Virus record (IMG/VR): IMGVR_UViG_2526164604_000039
Length of the DNA stretch: 34,902 nt
Reading direction: 5' to 3' (one strand)
Source: a virus
Taxonomy: Duplodnaviria > Heunggongvirae > Uroviricota > Caudoviricetes
Position numbers: made by a program. Shown here in pieces: positions 33,001 through 34,902 of the stretch (positions are counted from its first letter, which is position 1; every line of letters starts with the position of its first letter).

Positions 33001-34902
33001 AGCTCTGACTAACTATTTAATTAACTTTTCAATCTAATTGCGTTAGATATTATACCCTAACGCAATATTTTTAATTCAATAATGTCTGTAAATTGTTATT
33101 ACTTATAATTATACATTTAACTATATCTACATTGGCTGCTTCCAATTACTACTTACGTAACGGAATCTCGGATCCTCTGTTTTTGGCTCGGTATAATAAG
33201 AATCATCAATAGTAAAGTTCGACGCTAATTTATCCCGAAGCCCACCTAAACGTTCAATGCTTGTTAGTTCGTTAGTAACATCCTTGAAAACGGTAGAAAA
33301 TGCTTTATGTTGTTTAGACTTCATAAATTCAGGAGTGCTCAGTGCAAACTCTTTATCAGGCAAACCTGGAATACCCACGAGTCCTGTCAATGAATTTATA
33401 CATTTTATCAAAAAACTGCCTTGAATACCTTGATTTGATGGAACACCGTAGCTTCGTTTAATATCTCCAGATATTTTATCTAAATCACTTAGTAATTTTG
33501 TTACTTTTTTATTTCCTGCACTTATCCCCGATTCATCGTAGGTCACATGAATCTCTCGGATTACATCTCGACACGTACGAAAATGATCATGTGTTCTAAG
33601 CTCTAAAGCTGAATTGATAACTTGAGAGACATTTCCTGTTTCGTTTGCTAGCCATGCAGAAAATATTGGTAAATCTAATGAAATAGTAGATGTGCGTCCA
33701 TGATCTACAATTTCAGATCTTGCAGTACTGATTTTATCAGACAACGATTGCACCAACCTTGCAGTATAATCATGACCAAAAGCACCTGTTTTTTTCATCC
33801 AATGCAATTGATATGCATGCCTTATTGGATGAATAAATGAGTCTGCTTTAAAATGCTTAGCAATGACGCTGTAATAAATAGATTTATATGCCAACCAATT
33901 TAGCGATGCGATAAACATTTCAAGTGAACGAGTCATACCTCCTTTACCGCGAGTAGATTTTTCCCTTTCTAGTTCAAATTCACGCTCAGTATATTCATGT
34001 CCAGATGAACTCACTAGCTTCACATCGGTTGACCAGTACCCTTTCGTATCAGAAGCATCTGATAATTCATTAAAAATCGATGCACTTAGTTCACTATATT
34101 TCGCATATTCAGGAGTACCGGGCTGACCAAGCATTTTCATTGTTAAGTAATACACGCTAGACCGAAGATCCCATGTGCAAATCATATTCAGCTTAAGCAT
34201 CTCTACAAGTTGCCTAAAATCATCGTCAACAAACTCCCCACCTCTAATTTCGGAAGTAATTTGCCGAGATTCAACTTGTGCTAACTGATCAAGTTCACTG
34301 AGTTGAAAATCACTTTCAGATACAAATTTAATAAAGTCAAATTTAGCAATGCGTTTATCTCTATATTCTTTTTTATAATTATCTACACAGATCAGGGTAT
34401 CGTAAAAAAGTATCGCTTGAATAAGATTTTCAAAAGCGACTAAATCTCCGTTAATAGTATCTGGATTCTTAACAAGAATATCACCCAGTGTTCTTTCGAC
34501 TGCTGTTAACGAAGCATTATCAATCAACGCATAAGACATTAAACTACCTCCATTAGATAATATCTAATAACATTATATTTCAATTAGGTTTAAAAATTGT
34601 GATACTTATGACAGATTTGAGTGACATTTTATCAATCTACTGATTTTGATGGTGAAATTTATTAGAAGGTATGCGTAGTGCTACGGGAGAAATGAGAAAC
34701 GCGCCCAGCAATGGCGCATCCTTTCTTAAGCAAGTTGGCTAGTATCTATAGCATCCATCCAATCAGGAGCAATTCCCAAACGTTCCGCGAACTCTTCATT
34801 GGTCACGTCTTCCATTGAGAGACTAGCCAGACAATCGTTAATTTCAGAATAGACGGGGGAAAGTAATAGGTATTCCCGCAACTCTTTCAGGTCTTTTTCC
34901 AT

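Follow-up and report, generated by a model that had tools for sequence, protein, structure and literature searches.

A widespread, uncharacterised protein family as exchangeable cargo of an argW element in Escherichia coli O157:H7 and a candidate for stand-alone phage defence

Variable cargo hotspots are known in P2 and P4 (PMC9122126), and at E. coli tRNA hotspots defence systems are frequent cargo of integrase-only islands (PMC10121019). Integron cassettes, too, often carry defence systems (bioRxiv 10.64898/2026.03.17.712381), and the single-ORF anti-phage cassettes described so far include Cernunnos, Belenos, Sirona, Ogmios, VP1817 and others (bioRxiv 10.64898/2026.03.17.712381, 10.1101/2024.07.02.601719). 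For the gene analysed here, which encodes a protein of 470 residues (470-aa gene), this published content of cassettes and islands provides a prior rather than a test, and the many non-defence functions that integrons and islands also carry are a counter-argument to a defence reading.

The locus shares several properties with these systems. Like the P2/P4 and the integrase-only hotspots, the argW element that carries the 470-aa gene has a backbone with one slot, in which unrelated AT-rich genes are swapped between strains, and at least one of the alternative cargoes, PDC-S06, is a listed defence candidate. Unlike in P2/P4, the argW backbone comprises a tyrosine integrase, AlpA, a rolling-circle Rep-like gene and a serine recombinase within ~8 kb. 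The Vibrio vulnificus homologue resembles the anti-phage cassettes in being a promoterless single-ORF cassette, and several copies of the gene lie beside IntI genes; however, the 470-aa gene has no known sequence relation to Cernunnos and the other anti-phage cassettes and no PADLOC matches, it is larger than most cassettes (1.4 kb), and its E. coli copy lies outside an integron. VapC-type PIN toxins differ from the 470-aa protein in several respects, since the latter has no sequence or profile similarity to them, would-be third and fourth acidic residues that are not family-wide, no antitoxin gene, and ~340 residues of unmatched fold within its 470 aa. PDC-S06, a single large ATPase of the SMC/AAA_13 type (858 aa), is the cargo of this very slot in the argW element of strain MS1685 and is also among the immediate neighbours of family members elsewhere, whereas in sequence the 470-aa protein is unrelated to it and lacks an NTPase motif.

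The window and the exchangeable slot of the argW element

The stretch of DNA that was analysed, here called the window, comprises 34,902 nucleotides of E. coli O157:H7 DNA (IMG/VR record IMGVR_UViG_2526164604_000039), of which the first ~27 kb are the early half of the Stx2a prophage at argW. In this part, stx2B (~2405-2674) and stx2A (~2686-3645) lie on the minus strand (window 2405-3987), adjoined by three phage tRNA genes (Arg-TCT, Arg-TCG and a tRNA with a CAT anticodon, Ile according to RefSeq). The prophage also contains, between a cI-like repressor and rha, a type II restriction-modification pair (10558-12977) consisting of an Eco57I-like methylase (489 aa) and an endonuclease of the BsuBI/PstI family (317 aa), which is a phage-borne defence or addiction module. 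Further on, the ORF 28930-30066, annotated as a phage DNA ejection protein, is hydrophobic in its C-terminal half, which lies in a stretch with a GC content of 0.285 (28800-29400), and looks like the remnant of a P22-type ejection gene fused to unrelated low-GC DNA for a membrane protein. The features needed for the following analysis are:

27362..27436, plus strand: argW tRNA-Arg(CCT), integration site common to the Stx2a prophage, the intS island and the element carrying the 470-aa gene
27598-28755: intS
31739..32970, plus strand: left backbone remnant of the argW element, ending in a terminator-like hairpin
31762-32457, ORF within the left backbone remnant: 3' part of a rolling-circle-replication-associated gene (PHROG 30534)
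32971..34694, no strand assigned: variable cargo module of 1724 bp, GC 0.344, its edges being the homology breaks versus sister elements
32971..33126, minus strand: 3' portion of the module, including a 10-bp stem-loop (33066-33037) without a T-run
33127..34539, minus strand: 470-aa ORF, WP_000119352.1, member of PHROG 13435, a 'hypothetical protein' of an uncharacterised family in RefSeq
34540..34694, minus strand: AT-rich 5' region of the cargo module, containing GGAGG
34726..34902, minus strand: 58-aa backbone gene, WP_000409798.1, PHROG 35119, with a terminator-like hairpin after it (34721-34697)

A preliminary description of the window had pointed to a long intact ORF in a block of low GC content near an integrase island. 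Both the ORF and the block are borne out: the ORF at 33127-34539 has 470 codons on the minus strand, an ATG start and zero internal stops, and GC content is 0.32-0.38 over 32600-34800 versus 0.47-0.53 over 29400-31800. The gene itself has a GC content of 0.362 and a GC3 of 0.257. A GGAGG Shine-Dalgarno sequence (34551-34547) lies 7 nt 5' of the ATG, and a simple scan for a consensus sigma-70 promoter 5' of the gene gave none. Likewise, intS and the remnants of mobile elements (P22-like ejection and needle genes, 28930-31779) do lie upstream of the gene in window coordinates. The gene is mobile-element cargo, as proposed, but the element to which it belongs is a separate, truncated argW element and not the intS island.

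The truncated element joins the P22-like remnants at position 31739. Its left side is missing in O157, and with it the element's own integrase, the AlpA/Xis gene and the 5' end of rep, and its serine recombinase/DNA invertase gene lies just past the end of the window. An intact argW element of ~8 kb with the same gene is present in strain JNE120393, with 98% DNA identity from window position 31739 onward. Its gene order is tyrosine integrase, a hypothetical gene, AlpA/excisionase, two small genes and the rolling-circle-replication-associated gene (PHROG 30534), followed by the oppositely oriented 470-aa gene, the 58-aa gene and the serine recombinase/DNA invertase gene.

In sister elements the backbone is 93-95% identical and diverges between ~32970 and ~34695, with backbone homology stopping at ~32964-32976 and resuming at ~34661-34728. 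Terminator-like hairpins of the backbone are located at both edges of this slot (34697-34721 and 32900-32970), so that new cargo apparently enters between two converging transcription units. Alternatives found in this slot are a co-oriented pair of genes for 821 and 330 aa, found in 148 E. coli genomes (locus L074, 5352-8806, strain B19429); a gene for an 858-aa ATPase with a full-length match to the PADLOC candidate PDC-S06 at E = 0 (strain MS1685; L075, 3085-5661); a gene for a 395-aa HNH_5 endonuclease (L076, 2963-4150); and a gene for a 354-aa ParA-like ATPase (L077, 2891-3955), which is carried by a variant without the small backbone gene. Every cargo segment of the slot is AT-rich (GC 0.34-0.41). 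The 821-aa and 330-aa proteins have no match in Pfam, PADLOC or PHROG, and the pair is a candidate for a second uncharacterised system.

The small gene that the preliminary description had seen next to the 470-aa ORF is present (it starts at 34726 rather than 34728), but the implied partnership did not hold. Since three of the four alternative cargo types examined come with this gene, which also has its own terminator, we assign it to the backbone; a role as partner or antitoxin was rejected because it is kept with the backbone and absent beside the family elsewhere. We also considered an inversion switch operated by the neighbouring serine recombinase, which is unlikely because the region is collinear in 316 of 317 genomes. 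From the comparison of the elements we conclude that the exchangeable slot of an ~8 kb argW element contains the 470-aa gene and no other.

A mobile, stand-alone gene family

The label 'orphan', under which the gene had been introduced, turned out to be wrong, as hundreds of homologues were found. A homologue search returned 233 proteins, every one named 'hypothetical', and identities are 55-85% across Vibrio, Dickeya, Salmonella, Shewanella, Pseudomonas, Stutzerimonas, Aeromonas, Undibacterium and Chromobacterium. When 1.84 billion representatives were searched exhaustively with a profile, 316 clusters at 50% identity emerged. Members occur in Proteobacteria and several further phyla, and 54 loci (one genome per species) add Chloroflexi, Verrucomicrobia, Cyanobium, Nitrospira, Abditibacteria and Clostridia to the range. 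Full-length members have 455-485 aa and a single architecture, with no fused domains among the 150 matches listed.

Within E. coli, the 470-aa gene is carried by 317 of 5426 complete genomes, almost all of them O157:H7 or O55:H7 with few others, and all copies are at least 99% identical. The gene is intact in 316 of these 317 genomes. This intactness had been taken as a sign of selection, a reading that we do not follow because the carriers are essentially one clone. Instead, selection is apparent from the comparison between genera: pairwise dN/dS values for the genes of E. coli, Dickeya, Salmonella and Vibrio lie within 0.02-0.12, and, judged by these sequence comparisons, the family is under strongly purifying selection. 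In all eight copies measured (the window, L002, L003, L006, L015, L016, L017 and L070; hosts including Stutzerimonas, Dickeya and Undibacterium) the gene has a GC content of 36-40% and a GC3 of 26-34%. About 15% of the species-level loci contain a family gene with stop codons, frameshifts or truncations (pseudogene or truncated loci L020, L027, L060, L061, L063, L065, L067 and L069; truncated also L043, L066 and L068), and four plasmids only carry a homologue. The pattern of distribution is that of a functional gene which moves often between hosts.

The gene also stands alone. When all ORFs within 3 kb at ~60 loci were compared, no neighbour family was shared beyond local synteny, with the exception of IntI-type integrases, and no homologues of the E. 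coli neighbours were found beside the family elsewhere. A conserved second gene of ~210-280 aa downstream was considered and rejected, as no such neighbour family occurs across the loci. Similarly, the conserved adjacent small partner gene that defines type II toxin-antitoxin systems is absent from the 470-aa gene. In V. vulnificus, 122-nt repeats of the attC type (L006, 5850-5971 and 7430-7551) flank the lone ORF 6001-7413 with a few tens of bases to spare, from which we conclude that this copy is a single-ORF integron cassette. The Stutzerimonas homologue is the first cassette after intI, and IntI-like genes lie within 10 kb of the homologue at loci L003, L060, L048, L035/36 and L024; the V. 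tasmaniensis integrase does not match IntI, so that this locus is probably no integron. Homologues can therefore be integron cassettes, whereas the E. coli copy is not, its module ending at backbone terminators. Taken together, the 470-aa gene is functional at the level of the family, mobile, stand-alone and the cargo of an exchangeable slot.

Sequence and predicted structure of the 470-aa protein

Searches of Pfam, NCBIfam and PDB sequences gave zero matches for the 470-aa protein, and PADLOC-DB v2.0.0 contained no family at E ≤ 1. The earlier statement that the protein has no recognisable domain therefore holds, with all Pfam, NCBIfam and PADLOC families below significance. When 65 diverse members (21-40% identity) were searched one by one against Pfam and a profile of the members was compared with the PDB, nothing was found either. 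The sole full-length match was PHROG 13435, a family without known function, and the literature that we searched contained no mention of the gene accessions or of this PHROG. The preliminary description had named similarity to a housekeeping protein or a structural protein of phages as grounds for rejecting its idea, and no such similarity was seen in the collections searched: tblastn against 50,697 phage genomes gave zero homologues, the PHROG 13435 match notwithstanding, and a Foldseek search of BFVD with the predicted model gave zero matches at E ≤ 0.001. By these sequence searches, the 470-aa protein is unlike any characterised protein.

With 31 close homologues as input, AlphaFold gave a poor model (pLDDT 61); with 76 sequences down to 30% identity the model was confident (pLDDT 83.3, pTM 0.87). 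The predicted overall fold appears to be without recognisable precedent in the libraries searched. Residues 1-125 are modelled as an N-terminal alpha/beta domain, and many of the residues that are invariant or nearly so in the most diverse alignment (D7, R16, G19, D32, E37, D53/D54, Y55, R63, W123, W215, Y223, P238, R240, P291 and R324) fall into it. D53/D54 are conserved to 87-90%, even among members that are 21-40% identical. In the model, D7 directly follows strand 1, D32 and E37 are located on helix 2, and D53/D54 directly follow strand 2, and this layout of acidic residues suggests a metal-binding phosphoesterase site.

The modelled N-terminal domain weakly resembles PIN nucleases. D7 and E37, which are conserved to 98% and 95% in all subgroups, fall at what we take to be the positions of the first two catalytic residues of PIN nucleases. 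The would-be third and fourth acidic residues, D107 and D124, are conserved to 92-96% in closer members but to only 37-65% in the 65 diverse members, in which D32 and D53/D54 are conserved in their place. Pfam assigned no PIN family to the 470-aa protein or to any of the 65 diverse members, and hhalign gave a probability of 1.1% for the profile of the N-terminal domain against a four-sequence VapC/FitB alignment. Because of this low hhalign probability and the lack of conservation of D107 and D124 in distant members, we treat 'PIN-like nuclease' as a hypothesis and not as a classification. Among other candidates, an HEPN Rx4-6H motif at R240-H246 was dropped, as position 246 is variable and no HEPN family or fold matched, and neither PD-(D/E)xK nor Walker A motifs were found by eye.

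Possible phage defence and alternative functions

Neighbours of the family in other genomes include a number of defence genes. Genes for a TIR/SEFIR protein and for a SIR2 + HerA-like pair lie beside the homologue in V. tasmaniensis; in Salmonella, the homologue lies in the cargo region of a CP4-57-like island, where AbiGi and a BrxC/D-like ATPase accompanied by a helicase and TerB adjoin; and in P. fluorescens AbiTii and PIN_8 adjoin it, with the same chromosomal hotspot in P. moorei holding an SMC/MComp1/CTD4/metallo-beta-lactamase set. The V. vulnificus cassette array includes a Lit-type Peptidase_U49. When the two nearest neighbours on each side at 59 loci, 210 in all, were scanned with PADLOC, strong matches were obtained to Hachiman HamA/HamB, Lamassu LmuA/B, PDC-S06, bSEFIR, NsnA and PD-T4-2 A/B. 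The share of loci with PADLOC-positive neighbours is roughly one in seven, an estimate, as the counts were made per family and not per locus, and recognisable defence genes were present in only about half of ten Pfam-annotated contexts. Other copies have unremarkable surroundings, namely those in Dickeya, in Undibacterium, beside a VapBC pair, and in Aeromonas. The copy in Aeromonas hydrophila (L008, 6001-7356) follows recD at a distance of ~100 bp and shares the orientation of recC-recB-recD; an identical A. hydrophila protein occurs on many contigs, which points to a stable chromosomal position by the RecBCD genes.

The idea of a single-gene anti-phage system, put forward in the preliminary description, is partly supported by the variable slot, the integron cassette and the defence neighbours, with the family itself absent from PADLOC. 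Our leading interpretation is that the 470-aa protein is a candidate stand-alone anti-phage or anti-mobile-element protein, to which we assign a probability of roughly 45%. In the mechanism that we propose, the N-terminal domain (D7, R16, D32, E37, D53/D54 and R63) would be a metal-dependent phosphodiesterase or nuclease effector, and the mostly helical remainder with the invariant residues P238-x-R240, P291 and R324 would restrain it. The helical part might respond to a cue of infection, upon which the activated effector would stop phage replication or abort the infected cell. The metal-dependent nuclease, which derives from the predicted model, is less likely than the defence role as such. 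A more far-reaching version, according to which the family would be a new, widespread single-protein anti-phage system of unseen fold that integrons and small integrative elements disseminate, with a PIN-like N-terminal nuclease under the control of a helical sensor of a new type, the argW element an undescribed shuttle for defence cargo, and the 821-aa/330-aa pair and the HNH endonuclease new systems as well, is speculative and appears rather doubtful as a whole.

The main argument against defence is the strong conservation of the family, which fits an enzyme with a fixed substrate as well as a defence effector. The protein could thus be an accessory enzyme or regulator outside genetic conflict, acting for example on a nucleotide or a small molecule. 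Purifying selection of the observed strength and 55-85% identity across genera are more typical of a fixed-substrate enzyme than of an arms-race protein, genes for acetyltransferases, dehydrogenases, ABM and glyoxalase occur in the surrounding cassette arrays, in Dickeya and Aeromonas the copies have ordinary chromosomal genes around them, and the first, lower-confidence model weakly matched nucleotide-binding folds of the HUP class. However, the gene has no link to a metabolic operon and almost every genus has different neighbours beside it, while defence genes recur among them and the gene is allelic with PDC-S06 and the HNH endonuclease in one slot. A patchy distribution, AT-rich genes in GC-rich hosts and the ~15% of pseudogene copies also argue against such a role, which we consider unlikely.

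Somewhat less probable still is that the protein serves the mobile element itself, be it by interference with phages or plasmids that act as helpers or competitors, by countering host defences or, as an addiction-type toxin, by helping to retain the element or cassette. The gene invariably resides on mobile DNA (integron cassettes, integrative islands, occasionally plasmids), the E. coli slot is located between the replication and recombinase modules, and the ParA-like alternative cargo suggests element maintenance. Yet a classical toxin-antitoxin system is unlikely given a lone ORF in cassettes without a conserved antitoxin-like partner, the protein has no similarity to known anti-defence proteins in Pfam, PHROGs and BFVD, and interference between elements overlaps in practice with the defence reading.

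Finally, the gene could be an inert passenger in O157:H7, intact only owing to the young age of the lineage and silenced in AT-rich surroundings: all E. coli copies belong to essentially one lineage, the surrounding element is truncated, no consensus promoter lies upstream, and a GC content of 0.34 is typical of xenogeneically silenced DNA (H-NS), but the strong ribosome-binding site, the ORF kept intact in all carriers but one and the constraint throughout the family, together with the fact that silence in the laboratory is compatible with function, make this quite improbable.

We return to the candidate anti-phage or anti-mobile-element protein as the preferred interpretation. Variable cargo genes in mobile-element hotspots are of a well-known kind, and many such families are on candidate lists. 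The family described here stands above the average in that it is conserved and absent from Pfam, has a confident model without a structural neighbour, and combines an integron cassette, an allelic slot and defence neighbours in four genera. It is carried by every O157:H7 genome examined, by environmental Vibrio, Pseudomonas and Shewanella, and by many uncultured bacteria. If the protein is protective, it would represent a defence family with no detectable relation to the known ones and without structural precedent, and would offer a one-gene model for the sensing of infection; if it has another function, it would still be a large, highly conserved and uncharacterised family that is missing from Pfam. 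For O157:H7, the results mean that part of the 'decayed island' beside the Stx2a prophage is a truncated cargo-carrying element, and, whatever the 470-aa gene does, the argW slot is a concrete and easily cloned source of more candidates.
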